From Chloroflexota bacterium (GTDB lineage: Bacteria; Chloroflexota; UBA6077; FW602-bin22; JBCLEL01), in the NCBI GenBank assembly GCA_965220775.1, contig OZ244845.1, positions 1,683,034-1,747,033 of the forward strand: a DNA stretch of 64,000 nucleotides, in the 5' to 3' direction. This document shows, piece by piece, positions 6,005 to 61,640 of this stretch. A program made the translations under genes and the position numbers. The notes below the pieces were generated by a model. That model worked only from the letters and a program-made list of their open reading frames with translations. It was not told the DNA's origin and made no database searches. How positions within the stretch are numbered: position 1 is the stretch's first letter; each line of letters opens with the position of its first letter.

Positions 6005-6435
6005 CACGAAAATCGATGGTTCCCGTCACGCCCCCAGGCCCCGGCCAAAACTGTAGCGCGTGAGGTAGTCTCACGCTTGATCCCCGTCACGCCCGTGGGT
6101 CGCGGCCAATCCAGCGAGCCCGGTCATTCCGGCGAAAGCCGGAATCCAGGGGAGGCATGGGTCGTCCATTTACACGCGAACTCCTCCACCAATCAGCGCC
6201 CCTAATTTTCATACCGTGGTGTGCCGGTGGCAACCGGCACGGGCGATTGCAACGAAAATGCGCTTAAGCGGTTTTCGAGTGCCCAACGAACCCCTCCATT
6301 CGTCATTCCCGCGAAGGCGGGAATCCAGAGGGGAAGGGTGGCACCAACCACACCCAAACACCTCCAACGACCAGGTCTCATTTTCATACCTTGGTGTGCC
6401 GGCGGTGGCCGGCATGGGCGATTGCAACGGAACTG
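6005..6435. repeat. intergenic cluster of short palindromic modules (cluster R1)
   Basis: Contains tgtagcgcGTGAGgtagtCTCACgc, gtcattCCGGCgaaaGCCGGaatccagggga, ttttcataccgtggtGTGCCGGTggcaACCGGCACgggcgattg, and a second copy of each of the latter two. The same modules recur at 8 other loci in the window. Confidence 0.85.
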
Positions 6436-6647
6436 ACAAGAGCCGTGAGTCATCAGACTAAGATTGATCCCGGCAGGACATTGGGCCAGTGTCAGATCCC
6501 CAAGGCCACGAGTGAACTGCAATTCGCCCGGATAAATTCCTGATTCGTTCTGCGCCGCGTCGCTGGCATCGCTTGACAACGTGCAGTGCTGTCTCGACAA
6601 TGGCGCCCGTTGGCGGCGTGTCCTTCTGTTGCGCTTGGCAGAAAGGA

Positions 6648-6923
6648 ATGGCTTTGCGGTCGCTGTTGGCGCTACTATCCGGACTGCTGATTCTATCGAC
6701 TGCTTGCCTGGCTCCGGCATCCGCGCCTGGTCCAACCGAAGTGCCTCCGACTCCCATTTCCGCACCGGCTCCAACGGAAGCGCCTGCATTGAATGCGACA
6801 GTGACACCCTCTCCTGCCAACGAATACCAAGATTCCGATTGCCCGTGCGAAGCCGACAACAGCTTCCACAGACGCCCCAGCACCGTGTACCAACACGCCG
6901 ATGCCGTTGTCTACGCCGGATGA
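6648..6923 (+). CDS. small putative lipoprotein, possibly a truncated gene
   Basis: An internal Met of ORF 6573..6923 gives MALRSLLALLSGLLILSTAC (a lipobox-like signal), then a Pro/Thr-rich linker and a DCPC motif, then an early stop. The 5' part of the ORF lies next to repeat DNA. Confidence 0.3.
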   Translation: MALRSLLALLSGLLILSTACLAPASAPGPTEVPPTPISAPAPTEAPALNATVTPSPANEYQDSDCPCEADNSFHRRPSTVYQHADAVVYAG

Positions 6924-7027
6924 ATCGGCTAAATGAACCGGAGGAAATGCGCTATCCCAGAGCGTCAAAATCGAGGACGTACTGGGGAATTCTGTCTCAA
7001 ACGCTAACTTAAACTAGGAGCAACGTT

Positions 7028-7825
7028 GTGTTATCCAGGGAACAGCTAGCTTTCTTCGAAACGTTCGGGTTTCTTGTAGTGCCACAAGCATTTGTACACA
7101 AGGAGACGGCCGCAATCAGTCAGGAGTTCGATAGGATACTTGAGCGCGACCGGCGGGGAGAACCCTTTTCTGAGACGAAGCGACAGGTGATTTACGGGTT
7201 CTACGAGAAAAGTCCTTTACTGATGGCCTTGCTGGACGATGACCGTATCTACGAAGCGGCCGGGCAGTTGTTAGGGCCGGGATTCTCTTGGTTGGTCTCG
7301 GAGGGAAACCTATTTGTCGGGGATACGCGGTGGCATCCGGACGGCACGAGGCTGGATTTTGCTCCGCTCAAGATAACGATGTACCTTGACGACCTCACCT
7401 CCGACACAGGTTGTCTTCGGGTGATTCCAGGTTCGCATTGCCTGCCCTTTCACGAAGACCTCAAGCCGTCGCCAACGCACGACCGACCGAGGAGCTACGA
7501 CAAATTCGGAGTGAGTGGGACCGCAGTGCCTTCCTTTCCGCTGGAGACGCAACCCGGCGACCTTATATTCCTGAACATGAACCTCTGGCATGCAGCCTTT
7601 GGTGGCCGGCCCGGCCGTCGTCAGCTATCGGTAATCTTCACCCCAGAGCCCAGCACCCAACAACATGTTGAGATTATGCGGCGGAACTACGAGCACAACA
7701 TAGCGGAAATCGGCAGGTATCAATGGTCTCCGCCTGGCCCAATCATTGATGACGCGCTCTTGACCAGTGAAAGTCCTCGGGTGCGCGGACTCGTGTCAAA
7801 GTGGATCGAGCTTGGACTGAAGTAG
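7028..7825 (+). CDS. phytanoyl-CoA dioxygenase (PhyH) family Fe(II)/2-oxoglutarate oxygenase
   Basis: 265-aa ORF. WHPDG (HxD) and a distal LWHAAFGG histidine are typical of the PhyH family. GTG start. Confidence 0.8.
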   Translation: MLSREQLAFFETFGFLVVPQAFVHKETAAISQEFDRILERDRRGEPFSETKRQVIYGFYEKSPLLMALLDDDRIYEAAGQLLGPGFSWLVSEGNLFVGDTRWHPDGTRLDFAPLKITMYLDDLTSDTGCLRVIPGSHCLPFHEDLKPSPTHDRPRSYDKFGVSGTAVPSFPLETQPGDLIFLNMNLWHAAFGGRPGRRQLSVIFTPEPSTQQHVEIMRRNYEHNIAEIGRYQWSPPGPIIDDALLTSESPRVRGLVSKWIELGLK

Positions 7826-8039
7826 ATAATAGGCCTATCCCACAGACTAACAGAATTAGGCGCCGCTGCCGGGTCAGAGCACCGAATCGTCGGACCTTAA
7901 CTATTGGAGAGCCAGTTGATCGTCCTACTGGAGGAGTGCTGTAACTGTTCAGACTTAGGCGGACCGGTCTTGCGAGCTTATTGCAATAATAATAGGCGAC
8001 TCCCGTCGCGCCCGCGAGTCCTGTCATTGCCATTAAATT

Positions 8040-8680
8040 AGGTTCCCGCCATTCGCTGCGTCATACCTTTCCCCCACGCGGTCTTTGGTACGAAAATGGT
8101 GTTACGCGGCCTCAAGTACGCCTGAATGCCACCGGCCCCCGCTTCGTCATTCCGGCCCCCCTCTTCGTCATTCCGGCGATCGAAAGCATGCCCCGTACCC
8201 CGATACGGGGCCGGAATCCAGAGGGGAGGGGTGGCACCTATGACACCCAAAGACCTCCAACGACCAAGCGTCATTTTCATACCTTGGTGTGCCGGCGGCA
8301 TCCGGCATGAGCGATTGGTAGGGGAATGAATTCCGGCACCGGCCGGCGACACCAACCGCCGTCGCCCGAACAACGACAGCCCAGGGCCCCAAGAGAAATG
8401 TAGCGCTGGGGCTTGTCCCCAGCTCAGGGCGCGACGGCAGTTCGCCCCCGTTGCACTGCCCACCGCCGTCCCATTTTCATCCCCTTATGTGGCCTTCGCA
8501 AGGCCATAGGTGATTCCGGCGAAAGCATGCCCTGTACCCCGATACGGGGCCGGAATCCAGAAGGGGAGGGGAGAGACAAGACCGCCATACGACAGTAAGA
8601 GACCCGGCGTCCCAGCATTCTCATCCTCTTATGTGGCCTTCGCGAGGCCGTGGTGAACGCCGGCAAAAATCCGGACACGA
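8040..8680. repeat. intergenic cluster of short palindromic modules (cluster R2)
   Basis: Carries these modules: cgtcattccggc; gcatgCCCCGTAccccgaTACGGGGccggaatccag (twice); ttttcataccttggtgtgccggcggcatccggcatgagcgattg; tgtagcGCTGGGGcttgtCCCCAGC; and attttcatcc(c/t)cttatgTGGCCTTcgcAAGGCCA (twice). Confidence 0.85.
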
Positions 8681-8841
8681 AATCGAGTGACTGATGAGGA
8701 CCAATTACACGCGAGCTTAAAGCCCGTGACGGATTTGTTCGTACACTGACACACGTGCGCTATTATGGCTGATACTTGCCGCAAAACCGATTACTGGTGG
8801 ACCAGGATGACCGACAGGATAGGTCCTGGACGTGAGATACG

Positions 8842-10622: not shown

Positions 10623-10909
10623 GAACGAAACTCCACACTGGTTGGATCGCGTTTACACCGCAATCACACTAATTCTTCGATGACACGTCTCGCGCCACGG
10701 CAGCGTCTTTGCATGCCGTGGAAGACTCCGAGTAACCATAATACCATAACGCTCCAATAAATCCGCCTTGTGCCACCTACATTCAAATGACCCCACGTCT
10801 GGCCTTGCTATTCCCTGTGCCCGGTTGGGTCCAGACGGCCATGGTAAGATGAGTTGCGAACTGCGACCGGCTGCGAGCGGCGCACTTCTTGTAACCCGGG
10901 GGAAGCTCA

Positions 10910-11344
10910 TTGGCGGATAGATTCGACAAATTCACCGAGCGTGCGGTAAAAGTTCTCACCTTAGCGCAGGAAGAGGCGCAGCACTGCAACCGCAACTACG
11001 TAGGCACCGAGCACCTACTGCTAGGCCTCGTCCGCGAACGCGAGGGCGTCGCGGCTAGGGTGCTGGCAAATATGGGGGTAGAGCTGTCGAAAATGCGCTT
11101 GGCGATCGAATTCATCATCGGTCGCGGCGACCGAATGGTGATGGGCGAAATTGGACTAACCCCGCCTGCCAAGAAGGTCATAGAGCTTGCGGTTGATGAG
11201 GCCCGCCGGCTGAACCACCGCTATATCGGTACCGAGCATATTCTGCTCGGTTTGGTCCGAGAGGGTGAAGGAATCGCCGCCGGCGTCTTGGAGGCTTTGG
11301 GAGTTAGCCTCGACAAGGTGCGCGCGCAGGTAATGCTCGTTTGA
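10910..11344 (+). CDS. stand-alone Clp N-terminal (Clp_N repeat) domain protein, paralogue of the ClpC N-domain
   Basis: 144-aa ORF that aligns residue-for-residue with ClpC aa 1-141 (11426..). By eye about 13 substitutions. It shares the same roughly 65-bp leader and the TTG start context gggggaagctcaTTG. Confidence 0.75.
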   Translation: MADRFDKFTERAVKVLTLAQEEAQHCNRNYVGTEHLLLGLVREREGVAARVLANMGVELSKMRLAIEFIIGRGDRMVMGEIGLTPPAKKVIELAVDEARRLNHRYIGTEHILLGLVREGEGIAAGVLEALGVSLDKVRAQVMLV

Positions 11345-11425
11345 CTGTTGCCGGCCGTGTTAAGATTAACTGCGAATCGCGACCGGCTGCGAGCGGCGCA
11401 CTTTTTGTAACCCGGGGGAAGCTCA

Positions 11426-13882
11426 TTGGCGGATAGATTCGATAAATTCACCGAGCGAGCCAGAAAAGTTCTGACCTTAGCGCAAGAAGAGGCGCAGCGC
11501 TTCAACCACAACTACATAGGTACGGAGCACCTACTCCTGGGCCTTGTCCGCGAAGGCGAGGGTGTCGCGGCTAAAGTGCTGGCAAATATGGGAGTAGAGC
11601 TATCGAAAGTGCGCTCGGCGGTCGAATTTATCATCGGTCGCGGCGACCGAATGGTAATGGGCGAGATTGGACTGACTCCCCGTGCCAAGAAGGTTATAGA
11701 GCTTGCCGTTGACGAAGCCCGCCGGCTGAACCATCACTACATCGGCACCGAGCACATTCTGCTCGGTTTGGTCCGAGAGGGTGAAGGAATTGCCGCCGGC
11801 GTCTTGGAGAGTCTCGGAGTCAGCCTCGATAAGGTTCGCGCTCAGGTCATCCACCTTCTCAGCCAAAGTTCTACATACACGCAGCATGAGTCCCGCCAGC
11901 CGACCAGAACTCCGACAATCGACCAGATGGGAATTGACCTGACTGCGGCTGCCAGATCCGGCAAGCTCGATCCCGTCATCGGTAGGTTGACCGAAATCGA
12001 GCGCGTGGTTCAGATTCTTTCGCGTCGTACCAAGAACAATCCTGCCTTGATTGGCGAGCCCGGCGTTGGGAAAACAGCCATCGTCGAAGGATTGGCCCAG
12101 CGCATAGTGGCCGGCGACGTCCCCGAGACTTTGACAGGAAAGAGGCTGCTCACTCTCGACATCGGGTCGTTGGTTGCCGGTACCAAGTATCGGGGAGAGT
12201 TCGAAGAACGGCTAAAGAAGATCGTTGAAGAAATCCGGACCGCCGGCAACTGCGTCATGTTCATCGATGAGCTTCACACACTAGTGGGCGCCGGCGCTGC
12301 CGAGGGCGCGGTCGATGCCGCCAACATTCTCAAGCCGTCGCTTGCGCGTGGTGACCTCCAATGCATAGGCGCGACCACTCTTGATGAGTACCGAAAGTAC
12401 ATCGAGCGCGACGCCGCTTTGGAGCGCCGTTTTCAGCCGGTCACCGTTGAAGAACCCACAATCGAAGAGACGATCGCTATTTTGAAGGGTATCAAGGAGC
12501 GGTACGAGGCGCACCACCGGCTCGAGATATCCGAGGAAGCTATCCAAGCTGCCGCCGACTTGGCAGCCCGCTACATCGCCGACCGATTCCTTCCGGATAA
12601 GGCGATCGATTTGGTTGATGAGGCATCTTCTCGTGTCCGACTCAAGAAGTCGAAAGCGCCACCCTCTCTGAAAGATGCATTACAAGGACTCGAGGCGGTC
12701 CAGCGTGAAAAAGAGGCGGCTATCAGTGCCCAGCAGTATGAGTTGGCAGCCGATCTGCGCGACCGCGAGGTCAAGTTGCGGGAAAAGATCGACGCACTGG
12801 AGGCCGGCTGGCAAGAGACGCAAGCGGCCGGTAAAACGGTCGTCACCGGAGAGCATATCGCCGAAGTCGTCTCGATGTGGACTGGTGTCCCAGTTACCAG
12901 GATTGCTATGGAGGAGTCCGAGCGCCTGCTTCAAATGGAAGATGCGCTGCACAAACGTGTCGTCGGTCAACAGGAAGCCATCGTGACGATCTCCCGCGCC
13001 GTGCGGCGGGCCCGCGCCGGCCTTAAAGATCCTAAACGTCCAATCGGTTCGTTCATCTTTCTTGGCCCAACCGGAGTTGGCAAGACGGAGTTGGCACGCG
13101 CCTTGGCCGAGTTTTTGTTCGGCAGCGAAGAAAACATGATCAAGATCGACATGTCGGAGTTCATGGAGCGCCATTCGGTCGCCCGCTTGGTTGGCGCGCC
13201 TCCCGGTTACGTCGGGTACGATGAGGGCGGACAGCTTACCGAGGCCGTTCGACGCAAGGGATATTCGGTCGTACTGCTGGATGAGATCGAGAAGGCACAT
13301 CCTGAAGTCTTCAACATGCTCCTTCAGGTAATGGAAGACGGCCGCCTGACCGATGCCAAAGGCCGCAAGGTTGACTTCCGCAACACGATTATCGTGATGA
13401 CGTCGAACGTCGGCGCCGATTTAATCAAGAGGGACACGACGCTTGGGTTCACGGCGCGCGGCTCAGAAGCGAGTAATTCAGAAAGCGCCTACGTGAAAAT
13501 GAAAGAGAAGGTATTGGGCGAGCTGAAGAAGACGTTTAGGCCCGAGTTCATGAATAGGATTGATTCGGTGGTGGTATTCCGCGCGCTGAACAAGGAAGAA
13601 ATCCGGGCAATCGTCGATATATTGATGGGCCGGGTGCGTGCCCAGCTCATTGAACAGCAAATAACCCTCGAAATCGACGATGAAGCGAAGGATCTTTTGG
13701 CCGAGAAGGGGTGGGATCCGCAATTCGGCGCCCGGCCTCTGCGGCGGACTATCCAAAATATGATCGAAGATGAGCTTGCGGAACAGCTGTTGCAGGGACA
13801 ATTCAAGCAAGGATCAACCGTCAGTGTCACGGTCAAGGACGACAAGCTTGAGATGAAGGAGGTCGAGCTCGTAGGAGTTTGA
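11426..13882 (+). CDS. clpC: ATP-dependent Clp protease ATP-binding subunit ClpC
   Basis: 818-aa ORF with two Clp_N repeats, two AAA+ modules (GEPGVGKT and GPTGVGKT Walker A) and a UVR-like linker. Confidence 0.95.
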
Positions 13883-13958: not shown

Positions 13959-15341
13959 ATGGCCAATGGTCGACCCAAGCGACGTATCATCTACGTCTGC
14001 CGGCAGTGCGAAGCGCAGGCTCCCCAATGGCTCGGGCGATGCCCCGAATGCGGCGAATGGAACACACTGTTGGAGACCCCCGAGCCGCGACCGCCGGCTC
14101 CCGGCCCGTTAGCGACGAATAGGTCGGGCTCCACTCCTGTTGCGCTGGACGACGTTATCTTGCAGGACACGCCCCGCATCAGCACGTCTATTGCCGAACT
14201 CGACCGAGTGCTAGGGGGCGGTATCGTACATGGCTCGGTCATACTGCTAGGCGGTGATCCCGGTATTGGCAAGTCCACGCTCGCTTTGCAGGTAGCTGCG
14301 GGAATGGCAGGTCGAGATCAACCGATTCTTTACGTTTCCGGGGAAGAATCGACTGGTCAGATCGTGATGCGCGCCCAGAGAGTTGCTTCCACCAACACCA
14401 ACATTCTCGCTCTCTCCGAAACCTCCCTGGACCAATTGGTCCCACAGATAAGGCAGATCCGGCCTGCGCTCTTGATAATAGACTCGATCCAAGCGGTGTA
14501 CTTGGAAAGCCTGTCCGCGGCCGCTGGAAGTACAGGCCAGGTGAGAGAGTGTGCAATGGCGTTGCTTCGCTTAGCCAAGGAGTCGGTCATACCGACGATC
14601 ATCATCGGGCACGTAACTAAAGAGGGAGCCATAGCCGGGCCTCGCGCGTTAGAGCACATAGTGGACGTCGTGCTTTATCTGGAGGGCGAACGATTTCATA
14701 GCTATAGGCTATTGCGTGGTGTGAAAAACCGCTTCGGTTCGACGAACGAGGTTGGCGTTTTCGAAATGCTAGGTGATGGTCTCAAAGAAGTTAAGAATCC
14801 CTCACATGTTTTCCTTGCGGAGCGCCCTGCGGGCGCGGCCGGATCTACGGTTGCCGTGACTGTCGAGGGTACTCGTCCAATGCTGGTTGAGGTTCAGGCG
14901 CTGGCGACCTACAGCCCCCTCACGATTCCTCGTCGCACCGTCAACGGTGCCGACATGAATCGATTGCAGCTAATCATTGCGGTGTTGACGAAACGAGTGG
15001 GGCTTGGCCTGGTCAATCAGGATATCTACGTGAACGTAGTCGGTGGACTGCATGTTGAGGAGCCGGCTGCCGATCTTGCGGTAGCACTGGCAATCGCTTC
15101 GAGCTTCCGCGACCGACCGGTCGCCGGCGATTTGGTCGCGATTGGAGAAGTCGGTCTCGCCGGCGAGTTGAGAAGGGTCTCCCACTTGGAGCGGCGGCTC
15201 ACCGAGGCGTCGAAACTTGGCTTCACTCGATGCATCCTTCCAAGTGGGGCCGCGAGTGGATTGCCGGCACCGGCGAATTTGAACCTCCTGAGGTGCGCAA
15301 CGTTGGCTGAGGCGTTGGAGGCGGCGTGGCAGATCGTTTGA
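13959..15341 (+). CDS. radA: DNA repair protein RadA/Sms
   Basis: N-terminal zinc ribbon (CRQCEAQAPQWLGRCPECGEW), GDPGIGKST Walker A, KNRFG motif and a Lon-like C-terminus. The ATG at 13959 is chosen because the longer ORF (13905) overlaps the clpC terminator. Confidence 0.93.
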   Translation: MANGRPKRRIIYVCRQCEAQAPQWLGRCPECGEWNTLLETPEPRPPAPGPLATNRSGSTPVALDDVILQDTPRISTSIAELDRVLGGGIVHGSVILLGGDPGIGKSTLALQVAAGMAGRDQPILYVSGEESTGQIVMRAQRVASTNTNILALSETSLDQLVPQIRQIRPALLIIDSIQAVYLESLSAAAGSTGQVRECAMALLRLAKESVIPTIIIGHVTKEGAIAGPRALEHIVDVVLYLEGERFHSYRLLRGVKNRFGSTNEVGVFEMLGDGLKEVKNPSHVFLAERPAGAAGSTVAVTVEGTRPMLVEVQALATYSPLTIPRRTVNGADMNRLQLIIAVLTKRVGLGLVNQDIYVNVVGGLHVEEPAADLAVALAIASSFRDRPVAGDLVAIGEVGLAGELRRVSHLERRLTEASKLGFTRCILPSGAASGLPAPANLNLLRCATLAEALEAAWQIV

Positions 15342-16018
15342 ACGCGGACCTTACTGCGGTCATTCTAGCGGCCGGCCAGAGTCGGCGATTGGGCAGCGAC
15401 AAGTTGCTCTTGCCCATAGCGAAACGCCCTGTCATAGCTTGGACTCTCGACGCTTTCTCACGCAGCCACCTCGTGAGCCGGATTGTACTGGTCATATCCG
15501 AACGTAATCGCCGATTCTGCTCGGACCTGTTAGAACAAATGGGAATTGTTGACCGGACAGACCTAGTTGTTGGTGGGAATCGCCGGCAAGATTCCGCTCG
15601 GACCGGCCTTTTGGCTGCCAGAACCGAATGGATAGCGGTACACGATGGTGCCCGCCCCTTCACCAGTGGAGACCTAATTGAGCGAGGATTCCAGGCTGCT
15701 CAGTCTACCGGCGCTGCCGTACCCTGCCTGCCAGTAACCGACACTGTCAAACGGGTAGATTGCCAGGGTAGAGTCGTCGAGACTCTCAAGCGGTCCGAAT
15801 TGGTGTCGGTCCAGACGCCGCAGTTCTTTCGTCGGGATCTCTTGCTCGCCGCGGTTATGTCCGCCGGCGACGACGTGACCGACGATAGCTCATTGGTCGA
15901 AGCGATGGGTTCGCGAGTCCAAACGTTCAGGGGCGAGCCGTCAAACATCAAGATCACCAAGACAGAAGATATTAAACTGGCCGAAATGAGCGCCGCTGAA
16001 GCGTTGGTCCGGCGATGA
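15326..16018 (+). CDS. ispD: 2-C-methyl-D-erythritol 4-phosphate cytidylyltransferase
   Basis: 230-aa ORF with an AVILAAGQSRRLG motif. Overlaps radA by 16 bp and ispF by 4 bp. Confidence 0.9.
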   Translation: MADRLNADLTAVILAAGQSRRLGSDKLLLPIAKRPVIAWTLDAFSRSHLVSRIVLVISERNRRFCSDLLEQMGIVDRTDLVVGGNRRQDSARTGLLAARTEWIAVHDGARPFTSGDLIERGFQAAQSTGAAVPCLPVTDTVKRVDCQGRVVETLKRSELVSVQTPQFFRRDLLLAAVMSAGDDVTDDSSLVEAMGSRVQTFRGEPSNIKITKTEDIKLAEMSAAEALVRR

Positions 16019-16515
16019 GGGTAGGGATAGGTAACGACATTCACCGACTGATTGCCGGCCCCACGCTCGTCTTAGGCGGTGTCGACGTGCCATTCGACAA
16101 GGGGCCCGCGGCCCATTCTGATGGTGACGTCGCGATTCACGCCTTGATTGATGCGTTCTTGGGAGCCGCCGGCCTCGGAGACATCGGCACGCATTTCCCG
16201 GACAGCGAACCGCGTTATCGCGGGGCTTCGAGCATCGACCTGCTGCGACGCTGCATCGGGCTGCTGGGTGAGGCTGAATTCCGGCCCCACAATGTTGACA
16301 TTTCGATATTGATTGAACGGCCCCGGCTGGCGCCCTACCTGGGCCTGATGGTCGAGCGAATCGCCGCCGTGCTGGAATTGCCGGCAAATCGAGTCAATAT
16401 CAAGGTCGGAACAAACGAAGGTATGGACGCGATAGGTCGCGGAGAAGCAGTTGCCGCCCTGGCTGTCGTCACCGTGCTCGGAGGAGAAACCCAATTCGAA
16501 GATTCATCTACCTGA
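16015..16515 (+). CDS. ispF: 2-C-methyl-D-erythritol 2,4-cyclodiphosphate synthase
   Basis: 166-aa ORF with IspF signatures: RVGIGNDIHRL, HSDGDVAIHALIDAFLGA, GDIGTHFP. Confidence 0.92.
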   Translation: MRVGIGNDIHRLIAGPTLVLGGVDVPFDKGPAAHSDGDVAIHALIDAFLGAAGLGDIGTHFPDSEPRYRGASSIDLLRRCIGLLGEAEFRPHNVDISILIERPRLAPYLGLMVERIAAVLELPANRVNIKVGTNEGMDAIGRGEAVAALAVVTVLGGETQFEDSST

Positions 16516-16586
16516 TCTATTCGTCGCCGATTTATGCGACTTGCCTCCGGTCCGCAAACCATCTCCCAGGTTGAGGAACCTTCCGG

Positions 16587-17567
16587 TTAGCGAGGATCTC
16601 GCGACAGTATGCCGGCGCGAGCCATTGATTCTTCTACCCCGGACCCAGGTCGTCCGTTGCCCAATTGGTCGACGATTGGCCGTATGCGTCCATCACCTAC
16701 TCTGAGCCAATGCATCAACATTGCAAAGTCTACGCGTCGTTGGAGATCATCTCGCATAGGGGCAATTGCTTCGATCAACGCTTGCCGAGTCCCGTAACGC
16801 CATTTGTCCAGAGTCTGGTTCGAGTAGGCGCCGGCTGATATCGCCGGGGCGGCGTGGCGCGACAACCCGTATTGCTCTGCGATTGCTCCGGCAGAGCTCC
16901 TGAGCGCGCTGGACGACAGTCGAGTGAAATCGCTGCCTAGGGGCAGCCATCCAACCATTGCGGAAAATGACTGATTGGGTGGTGAACTCAGTAGAAGATC
17001 TAAGTCGGAACGGCCGTTGTCGCCCCGAGGCGCGACCATGAACCTCGCCAACCGAAAAAGTTGGCCCAGTTCCCGGTCGCGGTCTTGGTAATATCGCGGA
17101 TCCAAGATCTGCACGATCTTGTCGAAGCCTACCAGGAAAGTGAGCCCGCCAAGCTTGGGAAACGCTTTTCGGTAGGCGATTGCTTGATCCAGGTACAGAC
17201 CAAGATTTGTTACAGCTACCGAGACTCTTTGATGGGCCCGCCCAAGGCTTGTTAATGACACTAACCGGTCTACAAGACTGGCGCCTTGTTGCTCTGTCTT
17301 GTCTATTGTGTGGACGGCAATCGAGACTACTGCCTCGTCACACTGGACGGTGCCTAGCGCCTGCTCGATAATTGCTTCGTGGGCAATCGTCAAGGGATTG
17401 AACGAGCCGGCAAACACCGCCATCCGGCAGCCCGGCGCGGTGATACCGGGCGCTACGTAGATTGGCCTGAGAGTTGGTGCGGCGCTCTGCCTCAGTTGGG
17501 CCACGCTGTGCCGAATGGAAAGTGCCAGATCGAGATCGTCGAACGCCGCGAATCCCGGTGAATTCAA
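16587..17567 (-). CDS. cytidylyltransferase-like / NMN(NaMN) adenylyltransferase-family protein with a long C-terminal extension
   Basis: 326-aa ORF. FAGSFNPLTIAHEAII resembles the GxFxPxHxGH nucleotidyltransferase motif, with TIAH in place of HxGH. Confidence 0.6.
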   Translation of the reverse strand: MNSPGFAAFDDLDLALSIRHSVAQLRQSAAPTLRPIYVAPGITAPGCRMAVFAGSFNPLTIAHEAIIEQALGTVQCDEAVVSIAVHTIDKTEQQGASLVDRLVSLTSLGRAHQRVSVAVTNLGLYLDQAIAYRKAFPKLGGLTFLVGFDKIVQILDPRYYQDRDRELGQLFRLARFMVAPRGDNGRSDLDLLLSSPPNQSFSAMVGWLPLGSDFTRLSSSALRSSAGAIAEQYGLSRHAAPAISAGAYSNQTLDKWRYGTRQALIEAIAPMRDDLQRRVDFAMLMHWLRVGDGRIRPIVDQLGNGRPGSGVEESMARAGILSRDPR

Positions 17568-17984: not shown

Positions 17985-18365
17985 ACACCCAAATCTCATA
18001 CCGTCGTGCGCCCGCGGCAACCGGCCTCCCATTCGTCATTCCCGCGGCGGTTGGAATCCACGCACCATCCTTCCGCGAAAGAACGTCAATCGCGATACCA
18101 CCACTTGCCCCCCAACGTAACGCCAGAAATCGGCCCCACGGTCGGTCATCCCGGCCAAAACATTCCCCCATATCGGCCCCCCCATACCCCGATACGGCGC
18201 CGGAATCCAGGGGAGGCGAGGGTCGACCCTGTAGCGCCGGGGCTTGTCCCCAGCCATGGACAAGCCGGCCATCCAACCGGTCAACCGCGCCGCCCATCTC
18301 GTCATTCCCGTGCAGCCATGTCCCGTACCCCGACACAGGGCCGGAATCCACCGGCCGGCGCTAAC
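17985..18365. repeat. intergenic cluster of short palindromic modules (cluster R3)
   Basis: Degenerate copies of cgtcattcccgcggcggttggaatcc, ccccgatacggcgccggaatccagggga, tgtagcgccggggcttgtccccagc and catgtcccgtaccccgacacagggccggaatcc. Confidence 0.8.
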
Positions 18366-18880: not shown

Positions 18881-18888
18881 ATTCTCGT

Positions 18889-22474: not shown

Positions 22475-22546
22475 GGGCCGCTAGCTCAATGGTAGAGCAA
22501 CGGACTTTTAATCCGCAGGTTCAGGGTTCGATTCCCTGGCGGCCTA
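22475..22546 (+). tRNA. tRNA-Lys (anticodon TTT)
   Basis: Hand-folded cloverleaf. Acceptor gggccgc/gcggcct, D arm gctc-aatggta-gagc, anticodon loop cTTTTaa, T arm caggg-ttcgatt-ccctg. No encoded CCA. Confidence 0.85.
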
Positions 22547-22599
22547 CCGCCATCGACCATTTCCATTATGCACGCCCCGCGCCTATGGTAGCAACGCCG

Positions 22600-22730
22600 G
22601 CCGGCCCAAAGAGGAACCTGTAGCGCTGGGGCTTGTCCCCAGCCAAAGCCCAGCGTCCCCGTAGGGGCGATTCACGAATCGCCCTTGGGTGCGGTAATGG
22701 CAACGCCCGCTGGCCGGCCCCATCCTTGAC
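22600..22730. repeat. palindromic modules (cluster R4)
   Basis: tgtagcGCTGGGGcttgtCCCCAGC followed by cccgtagGGGCGATTCacGAATCGCCC. Confidence 0.8.
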
Positions 22731-24956: not shown

Positions 24957-25400
24957 CGGCTCTCCACCGGCGAAACGTGCCGAATCATAGACCGATGGTC
25001 TATGGCGGAATGAGATAATGTAGCGCGGGGGCTTGTCCCCCGCTGGGGTCGGGGTGGGGCGTGGCAGAATCCGCCGTACCAATTCACTGTACGAAGCCAC
25101 AACTCCGGCTTTTCATACCTTGGTGTGCCGGCGCCAGCCGGGATGAGCGATTGCTATGAGAGCATGTCCGGACTACGATCCGGAATAGACTACCGCCACT
25201 CATTTCGTCATTCCAGCGATCGAAAGCATGCCCCGTACCCCGATGCGGGGTTGGAATCCAGAATGGATGGGAATGGGTAAGACCACCATACGATGGAAAA
25301 AACCGACCCGTCACCCCATTTTCATCCTCTTATGCGACCTTCGCAAGGCCATGGTGATTCCGGCCAAAACATGCCCCGTGCCCCGATACGGGGCCGGCGC
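24957..25400. repeat. intergenic cluster of short palindromic modules (cluster R5)
   Basis: Same unit as in 40.5-40.8 kb and 61.0-61.6 kb, in reverse orientation (tgtagcgcgggggcttgtcccccgc, ttttcataccttggtgtgccggcg..., catgtccggactacgatccgg). Also carries cgtcattccagcg, ccccgtaccccgatgcgggg and attttcatcctcttatgcgaccttcgcaaggccat. Confidence 0.85.
24986..25004 (-). promoter_or_regulatory. perfect palindrome upstream of higA (candidate operator)
   Basis: CATAGACC-gat-GGTCTATG, 30 bp upstream of the higA ATG. Confidence 0.4.
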
Positions 25401-26067: not shown

Positions 26068-26154
26068 GCGGACAGTCTAATTGGCTCATAGGCGATTAGT
26101 CAATGACACTCCTGGTTGGTAACCGCTCACGATTTTCGCTGGCAAGTATTGTTA

Positions 26155-26570
26155 GCGATTGGTACGAACCCACGCCCCGTATCCCGATACAAGGCCGGCA
26201 TCCACGATGCCGGCGGACCTTCCATCCACCGCCGGATGGTGGGCCTCCCGGTCCTCTATGTGGCATGACCCAAATGAGGGCGAAGCCCTCAGCACTGGGG
26301 CTCGTCCCCATCCATACACACAGCCGGCAACTCCTCGGATCAACCATCCGACGCCCCCGTAGGTGCGATTCGCGAATCGCCCAGGGGTTGGGGATCACGG
26401 CAAATCTCCACCCGGCCGTCCGCGGTTATTCCGGCCTCTTCACACAAACCAACGGCCCCGGTAGGGACGTCCCTCGTGGGCAGCTCCCCCAACCCCCCGC
26501 GGTGGGTGCCTACCCACCAACCCCTCGTTGTACAATATCCGGCGGAGCCTAGCTCCGCCCGGCCACAATC
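26155..26570. repeat. cluster of short hairpin modules (cluster R6, more divergent)
   Basis: A series of small inverted repeats: ccccgtatcccgatacaagg, GGCATCcacGATGCC, CCATCCaccgccGGATGG, GAGGGCgaaGCCCTC, ctggggctcgtcccca, GGTGCGATTCgcGAATCGCCC, GGTGGGTgcctACCCACC, GGCGGAGcctaGCTCCGCC. Confidence 0.7.
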
Positions 26571-38793: not shown

Positions 38794-39058
38794 GGTCTTG
38801 CCCTTTGCCTTGCGTCGAGTTGAGTCTACGCTCGCCTCTCCGGAAACTCAATCCCATATCGTATGATGCACCGCGCGCCGCACGTTCTCGGAAATGCAAT
38901 TCTCATTTGGAATTGAGGTCCAACTAAGATTGTACGATCAGTACTGAACACTCAAGGTCGATACAAGACTCTCCGTCGATTGGACAGAGTCTGTCGATTC
39001 TCCGTCCGAGGCGGCCGAAAGTTACACCTACGCCTAGCCACGCGCTTCATAGGGCGCT

Positions 39059-39400
39059 TTGTTTTGCAAAAAGTACCTCTTAGAGGTGGGTCCCTCCGAT
39101 CTGATGGAGGCCGGCGGTTTGAGACGATGCCAAATCCGGCCGGCTTGCGCTCGTCAAGACAATTTGTTTTGCAAAAAGTACCTCTTAGAGGTGGGTCCCT
39201 CCGATCTGATAGAGGCCGGCGAGTTGAGACGATGCCAAATCCGGCTGGCTTGCGCTCGTCAGGATATTTTGTTTTGCATTCTTGTCATCGGAAAAGCGGT
39301 TCTGCGCAAGTTGATAGAGGCCGGCGGCCTGAAATGACGTCACCAATTGGCCGGCGTGCGCTTGTTTTGTGTTTTTTCGTATTGGGCCGGCCATCTTCCA
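39059..39400. repeat. tandem array of about 105-bp units (about 3 copies plus a degenerate one)
   Basis: TTGTTTTGCA at 39059, 39164 and 39269, and a degenerate TTGTTTTGTG at 39362. Units 1 and 2 are near-identical and contain ACCTCT-t-AGAGGT and CCTCC-gatctgat-GGAGG inverted repeats. Confidence 0.85.
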
Positions 39401-39521
39401 CGGACGGATATCAAGCTGCGCGCCGTAGGTGTGCTGTCATCAGATTTGGCACGAATAAGCGAACATACGTACCATTATTATACCGCAGTAAGAGCGATAT
39501 TGCGGTAACTGTTGACGGCGG

Positions 39522-41153: not shown

Positions 41154-41319
41154 TTGGACGGTGGGCTAGGGTCTTCCGGTTCTCCGTCCAAGTCGGTCAC
41201 ACGAGTTTCAACTCCGGACGGAGGTGCGCTGCCATGGGGTTAGCCATCTGCCCGGAGAATCAGATATCCTTGGTCGATTGGGTGCAAAACCAAGAGACCA
41301 CGATCGTTGCCTACTGCAA

Positions 41320-43673: not shown

Positions 43674-44488
43674 CAGGGGTTTTTGATTCTCTAACATCCG
43701 TTGTCACCCAAAGGTTGGCGGTGGTCTTGCCTTCCCCCTCCCCTCTGGATTGCGGCCCCGTATCGGAGTACGGGGCATGCTTTTGATCGCCGGAATGACG
43801 AGGGGATGCCGCGAATGACCAATGAGAGGCTACTGGAGCGGTCTATCCCGGATCGTAGTCCGGGACATGCTTTCATAGCAATCGCTCATCCCGGCTGGGG
43901 CCGGCACACCAAGGTATGAAAATCGGGTGCATTGGGTGGTGGGAGAGTTCTAGCGTCATTGCCACAACCCGCACCTCCCCTCTGGATTCCCGCCTTCGCG
44001 GGAATGACGATTGGGGGGCCGGATTGACGAGGGGATGCCGCGAATGACCAATGAGAGGCTACTGGAGCGGTCTATCCCGGATCGTAGTCCGGGACATGCT
44101 TTCATAGCAATCGCTCATGCCGGCTGGCGCCGGCACACCAAGGTGTGAAAATCGGGTGCATTGGTTGGTGGGAGAGTTCTAGTGTCATTGCCACAACCCG
44201 CACCTCCCCTCTGGATTCCCGCCTTCGCGGGAATGACGAAGGGGGGGGTGCGGGAATGACGAATTGAGGGGCCGGAATGACGAGATCGCGGAATGGAGGG
44301 GTTCAACGGCGCGCTCGAAAGCGGCGTAGGCGCATCCCGGATCGGAGTCCGGGACATGCTTTCGTACGAATGACGAGATGCGGTTTCGGACTATCGAAAT
44401 GGCATTGGTGGGTTGACTGTTTCGACCAACTGCTTGTCGGCCTAGGAAAATACTCTAGAGGTCCTAAACATTAAAGAATAGAAAAGCC
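43674..44488. repeat. composite repeat element, short copy (cluster R8)
   Basis: Same 5' terminus (caggggtttttgattctctaacatccgtt) and 3' terminus (...aaagaatagaaaagcc) as 39522..41153, but only 2-3 internal units. Confidence 0.9.
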
Positions 44489-44539
44489 CTGGGGTGCACA
44501 CAGGGTCCGCAGACGGACACCCAGGACGCGGGATGGGAG

Positions 44540-45844: not shown

Positions 45845-46132
45845 GAGATCTCCTTCGAGTGTCTGCTTGAAGTGCTAGTTTGTTAGTGCAATAACAGTAT
45901 AGTTTGTTTTCCGGTTGGTTGAAAACTTGTGCCAATTCGTGAAAATCATATTACCCAATGTAGGAATAGTGACGAGATGACGTTTCCCGGATGAGAATGG
46001 CGACTCTTGACTTCTATGCATCATGGGCGCTCAATCGAATCGAAACAGCTACGTTCTGACGGCGTCTCTGTTTTGATCACCAGGACGTAGGAACGCGATA
46101 CTTCGCGCGGAAAATCGAGTCGGGTAAACATT

Positions 46133-46209
46133 GGGTGGTTAGCTCAGCCGGCTAGAGCACCGCGTTGACATCGTGGAGGTCGCTGGTTCGAGTCCAGTAT
46201 CGCCCACCA
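46133..46209 (+). tRNA. tRNA-Val (anticodon GAC), copy 1
   Basis: Hand-folded. Acceptor gggtggt/atcgccc, anticodon arm ccgcg-ttGACat-cgtgg, T arm gctgg-ttcgagt-ccagt, encoded CCA. Confidence 0.9.
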
Positions 46210-48051: not shown

Positions 48052-48390
48052 ATGAACAACATCGACACAGCATTCGCCAAAATGTTCGAAAGTTGGAACA
48101 TCCATCTTCCTCTTAATGCTACTACTCTGCAGCAACCCGGCAAGATCGTGCAAGCCGGATGGGCCATACGGTATGTGTTCGGCGAGGACTATCTCGACTA
48201 TTATGCCGAACACCGTATGACTAGCCCATGCCATGAAAGAATCCACTCCGATGGGCGGTGTGAGTCATTGCAGGCCCCGAGCAACAATGTTGAGGCAATT
48301 CGATCTTTTGACCACCAGGACGTAGGGAGGCTATACTTCGTGTGGCAAAACGAGTCGGGTAGTGATAGGGCGGTTAGCTCAGCTGGCTAG
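48052..48390 (+). CDS. hypothetical protein; C-terminus reads into the duplicated tRNA-Val leader
   Basis: 112-aa ORF. The last roughly 28 codons lie inside the 139-bp duplicated segment and the tRNA itself, so the ORF is either truncated or spurious. Confidence 0.3.
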   Translation: MNNIDTAFAKMFESWNIHLPLNATTLQQPGKIVQAGWAIRYVFGEDYLDYYAEHRMTSPCHERIHSDGRCESLQAPSNNVEAIRSFDHQDVGRLYFVWQNESGSDRAVSSAG

Positions 48391-48444
48391 AGCGCCACGT
48401 TGACATCGTGGAGGTCACTGGTTCGAGTCCAGTATCGCCCACCA
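48368..48444 (+). tRNA. tRNA-Val (anticodon GAC), copy 2
   Basis: Same fold as copy 1 with a few compensated substitutions. Encoded CCA. Confidence 0.9.
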
Positions 48445-54346: not shown

Positions 54347-54380
54347 GGAAAGTCGAGGATAGGCTGAAAGGAGAAACGAA

Positions 54381-55070: not shown

Positions 55071-55082
55071 TAAGGAGTACAG

Positions 55083-57996: not shown

Positions 57997-58053
57997 CCCT
58001 CCGGCCAACAGAACTACATTCGGAGTCTGTGAGAGAACAAAGGAGCGAAGCTC

Positions 58054-58923: not shown

Positions 58924-59114
58924 GGGTCCCGACCCGAAGATCGCGGTCGAAGTCAGAAGGGCAAATTGTCCTTAAGCTTTTCTCCGCGCAGATACATATG
59001 TAGTGGGCTCGGTTGCGCTACTCGATGGAGCACTCCGTGAAAGGACGAGTTGCCGTAGACCAGCTGTCGGGAAAATGGCCAGCCGGATTGAGATCGTTCT
59101 TCCGGAACGTGCCT

Positions 59115-60788
59115 ATGCGCGCTCATCTCCCGACGATCCTGCTTGCCTCGTGCATGTTCTTTACCGGCGCCGCCGGCCTGGTTGTCGAGTACATCCTCAG
59201 CACCGTAAGCACCTACATCCTAGGGAACTCGATCGAACAATTCGTCATCATCATTGCGCTGATGCTGTTGATGATGGGAGTTGCCGGCTCGGCGCAGAAT
59301 CTGATCGGCGACCGCGGCCTCGTAGAGAAGTTCATCCTCATCGAGATTTTGTTGGCGTGGCTCGGTGGATTCGCCCCCATAGCAATATACGCTGCCTTTG
59401 GCGCTCTGGTGCACCACTTCCAGGTTATTCAGTACTTCTTTGTGATCTCCATAGGTCTCCTGATCGGATTTGAAATTCCCCTCGTGCTTCGTATCAACGA
59501 GAGATACCAGAAGCGGCTGGGTGCAAACATCGCCAGCATCTATACGCTCGACTACGTCGGAGCATTCGTAGGGGCCGTAGCCTTCAACTTCTTACTACTG
59601 AAGCTCTTTCCCCTCACGGAGATAAGCTTCATTGTCGCCGGCCTCAATTTCTTCGTAGCAACACTGGCATTCTGGTACTTCTGGCGACAGGACCTGATTT
59701 CCCATCGGTGGGTGATGGGGGGAGCAATTGTTGTTACCGTCTTCGCACTGGGGTACGGGTACCTCAATAACCGCGGCTGGAATCAGAGTATCGAACAGAG
59801 ACTATATAATGCGCCAATAGTCTTGGCTAAGACGACCAGCTATCAGCGGCTGGTATTGACCTATAGCGATCGACGGGGCGAATATCGGTTTTTCATCAAT
59901 GGCAATCTGCAGTTTTCGAGCAGAGACGAGAGCATTTATCACGAGCAGCTTGTACACCCGGCGATGGCGCTCGTGCCGGACCATCGGCGAGTCCTGATAC
60001 TCGGAGGCGGAGATGGCCTTGCCTTGCGTGAGGTGTTGAAATACCCGGATGTCGAAGAGGTGACCCTAGTCGAACTGGACCCGGAAATGATCGAGCTGTT
60101 TTCTACAAACTCGACTCTACGTGAACTCAACAACGATGCATTCGCCGATGCCCGGGTGAGGGCTTGGTCTTCGCCGGGGGTGCAGGCATCTGAGGAGAGA
60201 ACAGTTCTCTACCAAGAATCGGGAGAGACCGATCAAGCCGGACGCGGCGTGTCCGAGCCGATCAGTAGCGTAGAAGTGTACACCGTAGACGCGGACCGGT
60301 TCATCGCTGACGTGGGCGAAGCCTGGAACGTGATCTTTATCGATCTGCCTGACCCAAGCTCGGTGGAACTCGCCAAGCTGTACAGCAAGGAGTTCTACTT
60401 GAAATTGCATCCGGTTCTCGCCGAAACAGGCGTGGTCGCCTTACAAGCAACCTCCCCTTATCACGCAACAGAGACCTACCTCGGCATTCAGAGGACGATG
60501 GAAGCGGCCGGCTTCAGGACGTTGCCCTATCACGACAACGTCCCTAGTTTCGGCGACTGGGGTTGGTTATTGGGCTGGAAGAATGAGACTTCCGAGGAGA
60601 CGGTTCGAGCCAGAATCGAGCGTCTGTCCCAGTTTCAGGTGGAGACGGACTATTTGACGCCAGAGGTGTTCCGGCGGGCTCTTGTATTTGGAAAGAATTG
60701 GCTCGAGTCCCGGCACGACGGGATCAGTACGCTCATGGATCCCAAGGTACTCTACTATTACCTAGATGAGAGTTGGATAGCCGAATAG
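59115..60788 (+). CDS. membrane-anchored polyamine aminopropyltransferase (spermidine/spermine synthase-like)
   Basis: An N-terminal multi-TM domain of about 220 aa, followed by a SpeE-like domain (ILGGGDGLALREVLKY, IFIDLPDPSS). The start could also be 59013 or 59025. Confidence 0.85.
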   Translation: MRAHLPTILLASCMFFTGAAGLVVEYILSTVSTYILGNSIEQFVIIIALMLLMMGVAGSAQNLIGDRGLVEKFILIEILLAWLGGFAPIAIYAAFGALVHHFQVIQYFFVISIGLLIGFEIPLVLRINERYQKRLGANIASIYTLDYVGAFVGAVAFNFLLLKLFPLTEISFIVAGLNFFVATLAFWYFWRQDLISHRWVMGGAIVVTVFALGYGYLNNRGWNQSIEQRLYNAPIVLAKTTSYQRLVLTYSDRRGEYRFFINGNLQFSSRDESIYHEQLVHPAMALVPDHRRVLILGGGDGLALREVLKYPDVEEVTLVELDPEMIELFSTNSTLRELNNDAFADARVRAWSSPGVQASEERTVLYQESGETDQAGRGVSEPISSVEVYTVDADRFIADVGEAWNVIFIDLPDPSSVELAKLYSKEFYLKLHPVLAETGVVALQATSPYHATETYLGIQRTMEAAGFRTLPYHDNVPSFGDWGWLLGWKNETSEETVRARIERLSQFQVETDYLTPEVFRRALVFGKNWLESRHDGISTLMDPKVLYYYLDESWIAE

Positions 60789-60894
60789 TAACTGTTCAGA
60801 TTTGAGCGTAATTTGTCCTGCGCGTTTGCAAATTGTGATCGAACAAGGACGGTAGGTTGTGGCGGAACTGCCCATAGCGACTCAATGTGGCACG

Positions 60895-61640
60895 GGTGCG
60901 CCGGCCGCCCCTCCCCTGGATTCCCGCCCCGTATCGGGGTACGGGGCATGCTGTTGATCGCGGGAATCACCATGGCCTTGCGAAGGCCGCATAAGCCGCA
61001 TAAGAGGATGAAAATTGGCAACGCGAGTTAGGGGACTCATCCATCCCGGATCGGAGTCCGGGACATGCTTTCATAGCAATCGCTCATGCCGGCTGCCGCC
61101 GGCACACCAAAGTATGAAAACCCGGAGTTGTGATTTGGTACAGCGAATTGGCACGGCGGATTCTGCTACGCCCCACCCCGACCCCTGCGGGGGACAAGCC
61201 CTCGCGCTACATTTTCTCATTCCGGCATCGACCATCGGTCTACAATTCGGCAGGTTTCGCCGGTGGAGAGCCGGCATCGAGGTTGATTGGAGGGCACATC
61301 CCGGATCGGAGTCCGGGACATGCTTTCGTACCAATCGCTCATGCCGGCGGGCGCCGGCACACCAAGGTATGAAAAGCCGGAGTTGCGGCTTGGTACAGCG
61401 AATTGCCATGGCGGATTCTGCCATGCCCCACCCCGACCCCTGCGGGGGACAAGCCCCCGCGCTACATTCTCTCATTCCGGCATCGGCCATCGGTCTACAA
61501 TTCGGCAGGTTTCGCCGGTGGAGAGCCGGCATCGAGGTTGATTGGAGGGCACATCCCGGATCGGGGTCCGGGACATGCTTTCGTACCAATGACGAGAGTG
61601 GGGATCTATTCTCGTACCAATGACACTCACGAGACTGGTC
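60895..61640. repeat. intergenic cluster of palindromic modules (cluster R9), about 3 tandem units of 245-265 bp
   Basis: The anchor atcccggatcggagtccggg occurs at 61043 and 61308, with a variant (atcccggatcggggtccggg) at 61553. Units match 40.5-40.8 kb and, inverted, 24.96-25.2 kb. Preceded by ccccgtatcggggtacgggg and tggccttgcgaaggcc modules. Confidence 0.9.

Follow-up and report, generated by a model that had tools for sequence, protein, structure and literature searches.

The question raised by this locus is what has built, and what has oriented, the clusters of short palindromic modules that lie between the genes of a bacterial chromosome. The stretch examined, referred to here as the window, comprises 64,000 nt of Chloroflexota bacterium GCA_965220775.1 (contig OZ244845.1, positions 1,683,034-1,747,033, forward strand). 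It is ordinary chromosomal DNA of 57% G+C which carries cobQ, a clpC-type gene, radA, apgM, a gamma-glutamyltransferase gene, speE and four tRNAs, and the host genome is described as soil-type Chloroflexota, the phylum being free-living and environmental. A first-pass annotation had distinguished nine clusters composed of seven modules, named a to g. We compared the window with related loci, a set of 600 kb in total from three related Chloroflexota genomes; among them are OZ253568.1, a complete chromosome of 3.71 Mb from a metagenome-assembled genome (MAG) named 'Chloroflexota bacterium', of which about 300 kb (8%) was covered, and a second MAG, CAXXUG01 (the CAXXUG MAG). On balance, the clusters are probably mosaic arrays similar to the intergenic mosaic elements of Neisseria (NIMEs), built on the target motif of the Ssn nucleases, assembled from four hairpin classes into tandem composite units, and given their polarity through a stage of single-stranded DNA (ssDNA).

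This reading begins with the identity of module a. Its sequence, CGTCATTCCCGCGAAGGCGGGAATCCAG, is an exact match to the 28-nt consensus CGTCATTCCCGCGMAVGCGGGAATCYRG of the Neisseria Transformation Sequence (NTS), which has at its core the dRS3 palindrome ATTCCC-N8-GGGAAT. In Neisseria the NTS hairpin is bound in ssDNA by SsnA, a single-domain GIY-YIG protein of ~95 amino acids, which cuts upstream of the hairpin on the forward strand only and whose gene usually has copies of the motif on its flanks (Chenal et al. 2025, PMC11893778). With a threshold of at most one mismatch to the consensus, four copies in the window proved to be exact (0 mismatches), one on the plus strand (6301-6328) and three on the minus strand (39803-39830, 43982-44009 and 44211-44238). 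The broader SRM pattern, used in the form HGTCWYN(0-2)YYVSBRHN(0-5)WNVSBRGN(0-2)RNCYNB, has six matches in the window versus 0.5 expected. The 20-bp dRS3 (ATTCCCNNNNNNNNGGGAAT) is exact in five of the ten a copies, the remainder having ATTCCG-N8-CGGAAT, one of them degenerate. The consensus of the module, CGTC-ATTCCSGC-GAAR-GCSGGAAT-CCAG, folds into an 8-bp stem with a 4-nt loop, oriented by a CGTCAT 5' flank and followed by a CCAG tail, and its stem contains one variable pair, which 60 copies fill with G:C, 28 with C:G and four with A:T.

All seven modules are present, and they reduce to four hairpin classes, a with c, d with g, b with e, and f alone. Each class has a conserved flank or loop together with covarying stems, a pattern characteristic of sequences that are recognised in single-stranded, folded form. 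Module c is an NTS split by an insert, CGTCATTCCGGCG-atcgaaaGCATG[CCCCGTA-ccccga-TACGGGG]-CCGGAATCCAG, so that a second hairpin is nested in its loop; the split outer NTS stem is retained in 29 of 34 copies, with compensatory variants (ATTCCCGC/GCGGGAAT, ATTCTCGC/GCGAGAAT and ACTCCGGC/GCCGGAGT). Reverse-complemented, f corresponds to this inner hairpin with a different stem; the GCATG flank and the CYCCGA loop are common to both, and the stems are TCCCGGA in 42 copies of the f type and CCCCGTA in 12 nested in c. In modules b and e identical flanks, TTTTCAT..TG[stem]T..GATT, enclose different stems, TGCCGGC and TGGCCTT, with TGTCGGT in relatives. Modules d and g are GTAG-tagged repetitive extragenic palindromes (REPs), composed of TGTAG, a stem and a CTTGT loop; the d stems are GCGGGGG (60 copies), GCTGGGG (31) and GCAGGGG (3), while relatives have GGCAACC with an identical loop, and 102 of 111 instances of this class pair at six or more of seven positions. 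No module other than d and g has the tetranucleotide GTAG on the 5' side of the palindrome foot.

The recurrence of these modules at nine places in the window, as originally described, is far above chance. A mismatch-tolerant scan of the window found a ten times, b 13, c eight, d eight, e four, f 11 and g two times, the f scan giving three further c-like matches; in dinucleotide-preserving shuffles, the measure of chance used here, no copies were expected of either d (8 observed) or b (12 observed). DNA folding also confirmed that each module is a hairpin, with z-scores of -2.4 to -4.3 in six modules and -1.6 in the long form of c. Repeat-covered intervals, taken as those covered by 12-mers recurring across the dataset, total about 5.2 kb in the nine clusters, or roughly 8% of the window, for which the earlier estimate of roughly 6 kb was fair. 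The clusters were likewise correctly seen as intergenic and as a source of spurious open reading frames (ORFs): a Pfam search of ORFs over the arrays matched no domain, seven of ten flanking ORFs tested had a Pfam match, and the peptides quoted for the arrays (IPAFAGMT, FIPWCAGxxRHERL and RHSGEGRNPE) were all found in the window.

The order of the modules is far from free. The 600 kb contain 526 module hits and 100 arrays of two or more modules, and 99 of these 100 are strictly co-oriented, head-to-tail. The view that modules occur in both orientations therefore holds between clusters and fails within them, where all modules point the same way, f having been written on the opposite strand. The arrays follow the grammar (a or d)→b→(f)→(a or d), the most frequent transitions being d to b (73), a to b (50), b to f (47), b to a (37) and f to d (31). 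The gap from b to f is 2 nt in every case, module e is invariably fused to a or c, and the linkers are conserved (66 nt between d and b, 86 nt between f and d, 19 nt between a and d). Modules and linkers thus form composite units of 175-300 bp that are tandemly amplified, namely d-b-f (255 nt), a-d-b-f (280 nt), a-b-f (~230 nt) and a-b (~175 nt), and between consecutive a copies lie recurring segments (b, b-f or d-b-f) of ~150-250 bp. That these units are real repeats accounts for the tandem periods of 229-301 nt in arrays 7-9. The impression of a Lego-like construction in different orders was right in that the arrays are modular, with breakpoints at hairpin edges, and has to be corrected in that the order follows a tight grammar in which the linkers are conserved too. 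A CRISPR array was considered and rejected, as the sequences between the hairpins are themselves conserved repeats and not unique spacers.

The orientation of whole arrays is related to base composition. In the window, arrays at 6-26.6 kb read forward on the plus strand and those at 39.5-61.6 kb on the minus strand, and the minimum of cumulative GC skew, at ~29.9 kb, falls between the last plus array (26.6 kb) and the first minus array (39.5 kb). In the comparison set, with GC skew measured outside arrays for each block, plus arrays have a mean local skew of -0.042 (32 of 41 blocks negative) and minus arrays one of +0.026 (25 of 32 blocks positive), a difference with p=1.8e-8. The link is found in coding, repeat-masked DNA alone (p=2.4e-8), within plus genes (p=3.5e-7) and within minus genes (p=5e-6), and in each MAG species separately (p=3e-4 and 6.5e-4), and in none of the 22 blocks that contain two or more arrays is the orientation mixed. 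There is no link with the strand of the flanking genes (upstream 45 same and 41 opposite, downstream 42 and 53), nor do arrays avoid divergent intergenic regions, where they occur as often as by chance, both by crude gene calls. Leading strands are generally G-rich. Since the forward, Ssn-cleavable strand of the arrays is C-rich, it would correspond to the leading-strand template. The relation of the motif's orientation to replication, its co-orientation and GC skew were not analysed in the paper that described Ssn (PMC11893778).

The association of module a with Ssn genes is best seen in other genomes. A database search with a hybrid probe yielded 6040 GIY-YIG (PF01541) proteins of ~95 aa. 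At one of the loci examined in environmental genomes (L073), an NTS on the plus strand lies 8 nt before the start codon of an intact 95-aa GIY-YIG gene and one on the minus strand 14 nt after its stop codon; at L070-L072, L074 and L075 copies lie at most ~150 nt upstream of the gene, and L070-L072 and L074 also have an inverted copy further downstream. In L069, from an unrelated genome of 68% G+C, an Ssn gene with a 26-aa N-terminal extension has tandem NTS arrays no more than a few kb away (7100-7475 and 15073-16912); they comprise 13 copies repeated every 29 nt and 15 exact copies repeated every 129-130 nt. Among 80 metagenome loci from JGI that encode relatives of the Ssn protein P0012, the SRM was present in 74, module a in 71 and d in one, and modules b, c, e, f and g were found in none. 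Module a is therefore the universal Ssn motif, while b/e and f are seen only in the Chloroflexota lineage and close relatives. PDB and NCBIfam contain no Ssn-specific entry.

A view of the nuclease together with other modules comes from syntenic loci of 62% G+C relatives (P0012 and P0002), in which an intact ssnA occupies a conserved site between a GFO/IDH/MocA oxidoreductase gene and glnS, in the company of modules e and c and of a d-class hairpin (TGTAG, stem and CTTGT loop). These loci also possess tandem 21-nt half-NTS repeats that resemble those at 39.8 kb of the window, and upstream of ssnA there are two to seven strain-variable tandem units of half-NTS plus NTS (at ~9200-10000 in L076-L079 and L161-L164, with ssnA at 10001; in L164 the units are at 2495-3090). 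One such unit in L077 contains a partial copy of the 5' end of ssnA, its first ~45 nt. From this variation between strains it follows that segments bounded by NTS do get duplicated. In a further locus, L080, an exact module d adjoins an NTS-flanked ssnA.

In the lineage of the window a trace of the gene was also found. A tblastn search of the window and the loci with approximate Ssn-like consensus queries had as its sole match a fragment in L025 (OZ253568.1 1,720,001-1,728,000), at 180-340 on the minus strand. This ssnA-like GIY-YIG fragment of 33 codons, RTPCVYIHADKPKGTRYIGATSNLFRQNWQHKE, shares 75% identity, across 32 aa, with the N-terminal end of genuine members of the family and lies directly 3' of an array; its start codon is lost (ATG to ACG) and it is cut off by a different palindromic repeat, CCCTCTCCCTGTGGGAGAGGGTTAGGGTGAGGGG. 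A palindrome similar to the latter (…CCCACTCCCTCGGTGGGAGAGGGTTGGGGTGAGGG…) stands in one b to e linker, which suggests a further repeat family in the OZ253568.1 genome. The exact 28-nt pattern of module a and the NTS was also found on 111 viral contigs of IMG/VR, mostly as single copies (L165-L244 and others), and module b on none of the IMG/VR contigs. Filamentous phages of Neisseria use dRS3 as their attachment site.

The arrays evolve fast and are variable between strains, as the comparison proposed at the outset was meant to reveal. At the same locus the window reads abfdbfadbfabfabfa and OZ253568.1 reads abfdbfdbfcde, although the two are ~96% identical around array 7. Units of the d-linker-b type are 94% identical when they come from a single array, 91% when they come from different arrays of one genome group and 85% when the genome groups differ, a gradient which indicates that units are still spreading or being homogenised within a genome. 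Arrays would grow and shrink by unequal recombination or by slippage between NTS-bounded units, as in Neisseria NIMEs, and a role as recombination hot spots is consistent with the strain polymorphism.

Much of this design has a precedent. NIMEs were described in Neisseria (Parkhill 2000; Bentley 2007, PMC1797815) as arrays in which 20-bp dRS3 inverted repeats flank RS repeat families of ~50-150 bp, and were stated to be absent outside that genus. They have the same 20-bp palindrome core, ATTCCC-N8-GGGAAT, interleaved with other short-repeat families, and like the window arrays they are intergenic and GC-patterned, generate spurious ORFs and vary in unit number and content between strains at syntenic positions (PMC1797815). 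We call the present arrays NIME-like, and not NIMEs, because the genomes closest to the window are Chloroflexota MAGs and not Neisseria. In contrast to NIMEs, their host is a Chloroflexota, half of the a copies have ATTCCG...CGGAAT in place of ATTCCC...GGGAAT, the interleaved units are hairpin modules in fixed order, and the arrays of the window lineage are head-to-tail and polar with respect to GC skew, which is unreported in the NIME literature compared. With the NTS/SRM-Ssn system (PMC11893778) they share the exact 28-nt NTS, the SRM pattern, the directional 5' CGTCAT flank followed by a hairpin, the cassette of NTS, ssnA and inverted NTS in related genomes, and a high density, which extrapolates to several hundred per genome; they differ in that only an ssnA fragment was located here and in the long-loop module c with its nested hairpin, which is not described there.

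In the REP classification (Di Nocera et al. 2013, PMC3733652), module a has the features that define CGTC-1, i.e. a CGTC tag, an 8-bp stem starting with AT, a 4-nt loop and a CCA tail, and d and g have those of the GTAG superfamily. Both superfamilies are known from one genome in Neisseria, Bradyrhizobium and Coxiella, whereas here CGTC and GTAG modules stand within one ordered array. CGTC repeats were not reported in Chloroflexi by that survey, which found them in five other phyla, and they were mostly head-to-head dimers, the head-to-tail arrangement being 'negligible' (PMC3733652), while in our arrays it is the rule (99 of 100). The bacterial interspersed mosaic elements (BIMEs) of E. coli and the REP doublets (REPINs) of Pseudomonas are likewise tandem mosaics of hairpin repeats and linkers, with copy numbers that vary between strains and with enzymes that recognise ssDNA hairpins; the inverse REP pairs that characterise them were not seen in the 100 arrays, nor a gene for a REP-associated tyrosine transposase (RAYT) in ~720 kb. 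Pneumococcal BOX elements, boxA-boxB(n)-boxC, are also modular intergenic repeats with few sub-modules, a fixed order and variable copy number, as in the window arrays. To our knowledge, their sequences are unrelated to the window modules and have no link to an NTS/Ssn motif and no replication-strand polarity. The suggestion that the clusters go beyond REP/BIME or miniature inverted-repeat transposable element (MITE) copies is thus right as far as the missing inverted REP pairs are concerned, and too strong in view of the NIME design and of a module that is an exact NTS. The known parts are NTS/dRS3/CGTC-1, GTAG REPs, already recorded in Chloroflexi, and NIME-type mosaics. What appears new is the phylum for CGTC-1/NTS arrays, judged against the 2013 survey, the genome lists of the Ssn paper lying outside this comparison, and, relative to the literature compared, the strict head-to-tail layout, the nested-hairpin form of the NTS, the fixed grammar and the coupling of orientation to GC skew.

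If the clusters are NIME-like arrays on the Ssn target motif, their strand polarity would reflect a single-strand DNA stage. Ssn-cleavable hairpins would be excluded from the lagging-strand template, the strand that becomes single-stranded at replication forks, and in its simplest version this would be selection against cleavable hairpins on that template. The arrays would likely function, by analogy with Neisseria, in modulating the fate of ssDNA carrying such sites, be it incoming DNA or DNA undergoing recombination, and recombination mediated by the arrays would be a side effect. The role of Ssn nucleases and of hairpin repeats outside Neisseria was called open by their discoverers (PMC11893778).

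Several observations weigh against this account. No intact ssnA was found in the window and the covered ~300 kb (8%) of OZ253568.1, and the single copy seen is a pseudogene fragment; a search for the GIY-YIG pattern in the window and the loci also found none. Modules b, e and f are without a known protein partner, and a part for Ssn in b, c, e, f and g is purely our inference. The window alone, with four blocks versus three, gives the skew test no power. In OZ253568.1 about 11 domains of alternating orientation and skew are present in place of two replichores, the leading strand was assigned from GC skew alone, and the skew may partly record past inversions. No DnaA-box cluster was found at the skew minimum at ~29.9 kb, which is therefore possibly an inversion breakpoint rather than an origin. 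Finally, NTS copies of mixed orientation occur within one locus in other organisms, so strict polarity is not a general property of Ssn systems; across unrelated Ssn loci NTS orientation is related to skew at rho -0.45 (p=0.014), a weak and non-independent result that we do not use as evidence.

A bolder form of this account, which we regard as doubtful, takes the arrays to result from a strand-specific ssDNA process that is coupled to replication and has an Ssn-type nuclease, and not a transposase, as its driver. Several hairpin classes (the NTS, the nested GCATG hairpin, the b/e class and the GTAG class) would then be alternative or cooperating substrates, and the polarity would be its footprint, left either by obligatory avoidance of self-cleavage on the lagging-strand template or by directional copy-and-paste at forks. 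If it is true, Ssn/NTS systems would organise the strand architecture of the chromosome, and the arrays would be mobile modules of a new kind, independent of transposases.

Other explanations place the cause elsewhere. That the arrays are collapsed or chimeric repeats of the assembly, or are confined to the window, is hardly credible. The same arrays are shared by three independent long assemblies, the window, OZ253568.1 and a metagenome contig in ENA with 99.55% identity to the window over 16 kb, arrays 1 and 2 included, and a scan for exact module b in one genome per species found the modules in at least 67 other 8-kb blocks, two Chloroflexota MAGs of different species being among the matches listed. 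What could speak for an artefact is a short-read Logan contig (L160, 2.8 kb, from a strain with an identical LiaF-like protein) that terminates exactly at the gene bordering array 9. Evidently the arrays break short-read assemblies, and they would therefore be under-represented in short-read MAGs. If a RAYT were at work, as the first-pass annotation suggested, the hairpins would be REPs, and a domesticated Y1 transposase would have spread them in clusters of the BIME or REPIN type. In agreement with this, d and g have the defining GTAG tag on the 5' side of the hairpin, GTAG REPs are known in Chloroflexi, and the polarity relative to GC skew would be compatible also with a Y1/HUH enzyme that works on the lagging-strand template. 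However, tblastn with three approximate Y1-transposase probes, including one similar to E. coli RayT, found no RAYT- or IS200-like ORF (PF01797) in ~720 kb, which comprised the Chloroflexota lineage and related Ssn loci. In addition, d and g have short, perfectly palindromic stems and not imperfect ones of 30-40 nt, BIMEs and REPINs are defined by the inverse pairs which the head-to-tail arrays lack, and the commonest partners, a, b and f, are without GTAG, a being the motif recognised by the Ssn family of GIY-YIG nucleases. A RAYT is possible for the d/g class, and as an explanation of the arrays as a whole it is unlikely.

Non-autonomous ssDNA transposons, such as palindrome-associated elements of the IS200/IS605 type or another MITE class, would have the composite unit or f as the mobile element, and strand-specific insertion beside a short target inside earlier copies would result in nested, co-oriented arrays. 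The skew polarity resembles the targeting of the lagging-strand template by IS608 and ISDra2, and the f-type hairpin always follows CGAAA(G), be it in the b tail, in the AT-rich cap element described below or in the NTS loop (as module c). Module f is moreover abundant in OZ253568.1 (55 copies) and the window (11) and nearly absent from the CAXXUG MAG (2). Against this, no TnpA was found in the ~720 kb, and a screen of multi-copy ORFs in the 600 kb for transposases yielded only ordinary paralogue families (top matches inspected by eye). No MITE-type inverted ends or target duplications were noticed around the units, although this was not a formal or systematic test. The one presence/absence of f is flanked by ATG direct repeats and could equally be a slippage deletion, and the linkers after f are conserved, so that the counts are accounted for if an existing b-f unit was amplified, with no need of repeated insertion. 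Site-specific insertion is possible for f; as the general mechanism we hold transposition of this kind to be quite unlikely. Still more improbable is that the arrays act as RNA, whether as terminators, mRNA stabilisers or structured non-coding RNA arrays. Their hairpins are stable and covarying, the conserved cap at some array starts could hold a promoter, and REPs in other bacteria are often transcribed. Yet the orientation is independent of flanking genes and follows GC skew, a DNA-level property, arrays lie between divergent genes at chance frequency, and only nine terminator-like sites were counted versus 5.9 ± 2.2 expected, which leaves the proposed terminator role without support. A scan of the cap for sigma-70-like promoters called none, and Rfam recognised only the four tRNAs of the window at the gathering threshold, with no match in the arrays at E<=1.

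The interest of this lineage is that it offers an unusually clean natural experiment, in which hundreds of head-to-tail copies have an orientation that tracks compositional strand asymmetry and not transcription. The prediction is that single-strand DNA exposed by replication is the substrate of the nuclease or of whatever process disseminates the repeats. NIME-type mosaic arrays, long deemed a peculiarity of Neisseria tied to antigenic variation, exist in an environmental phylum, where they come at the cost of spurious gene calls and broken short-read assemblies. In practice, the module consensus could be used for masking false ORFs in Chloroflexota MAGs and for picking pairs of Ssn and target for ssDNA tools.

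The first six arrays of the window are on the plus strand. Array 1 (6005-6440), between cobQ and a PhyH gene, consists of a d-like GTAG hairpin (6052-6076), a (6123-6149), b (6206-6249), a (6302-6328) and b (6381-6424). Array 2 (8085-8663) has the order c-b-d-e-c-e, with c at 8186-8221 (the 5' half of its split NTS beginning at ~8167), b at 8274-8317, d at 8399-8423, e at 8473-8519, c at 8525-8560 and e at 8617-8663. In array 3 (18035-18360) a degenerate a (18035-18061) is followed by c (18175-18210), d (18230-18254) and c (18316-18351). Array 4 (22619-22684) contains just two GTAG-tagged hairpins, d (22619-22643) and g (22658-22684), and starts ~70 nt downstream of tRNA-Lys (22475-22548). Array 5 (24957-25397) is composed of d (25019-25043), b (25110-25153), c (25226-25261), e (25318-25364) and c (25353-25397), and the degenerate array 6 (26154-26382) of a c-like module (26170-26205), a d-like one (26283-26323) and g (26356-26382).

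The remaining three arrays are on the minus strand and are given here 5' to 3' on that strand. Array 7 (39522-41030), the longest, reads a b f d b f a d b f a b f a b f a, in tandem composite units of 231, 255, 280 and 301 nt, and includes the tandem 21-nt half-NTS repeats at 39.8 kb. Array 8 (43674-44380) reads f a b f a b f c in tandem 229-nt units, and array 9 (60900-61640) reads f d b f d b f e c in tandem 255-nt units that are 89-92% identical to the units of array 7.

At the 5' end of array 7, in array orientation, lies the AT-rich cap element (41049-41157, minus strand), and a second copy, 94% identical to it, is found at 44384-44492 on the same strand. The cap has a 109-nt core, with ~125 nt conserved in the alignment, an abrupt start at TTCTATTCTTTAATG and the end ...GTCATTCGTACGAAA. 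It is always situated at the 5' end of an array; besides the two copies in the window it is present at seven other loci, L014 5345-5453, L010 1678-1778, L032 1372-1480, L012 2861-2965, L068 7694-7801, L063 4706-4805 and L003 6266-6350. The copy at 44384-44492 carries a 24-nt f hairpin after GTACGAAA which the one at 41049-41157 is without, the indel being flanked by ATG.

Some other repeats of the window were recorded along with the arrays. Beside array 7 there is a 105-nt tandem repeat (39058-39267, with a partial third copy to ~39360; in OZ253568.1 L014 3501-3920), with two full copies in the window and four in OZ253568.1, each unit having a small hairpin with a T-run after it on the minus strand. 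It lies inside an ORF (38980-39534) for which a Pfam search gave no match. A 300-nt duplication with 86% identity (10818-11117 vs 11334-11633) was also noted; a stand-alone ORF with a Clp_N domain (10910-11344) stands ahead of the clpC-type gene (11426-13882), of whose N-terminal domain it is a duplicate. A 257-nt tandem repeat (72% identity, 63035-63548) is coding, and corresponds by the gene calls on L160 to tandem genes for ~86-aa LiaI/LiaF-like membrane proteins upstream of a LiaF-like gene. Finally, two tRNA-Val(GAC) genes share common flanks over 139 nt with 88% identity (46071-46209 vs 48306-48444), and a tRNA-Glu(CTC) follows 10 nt after the second of them.

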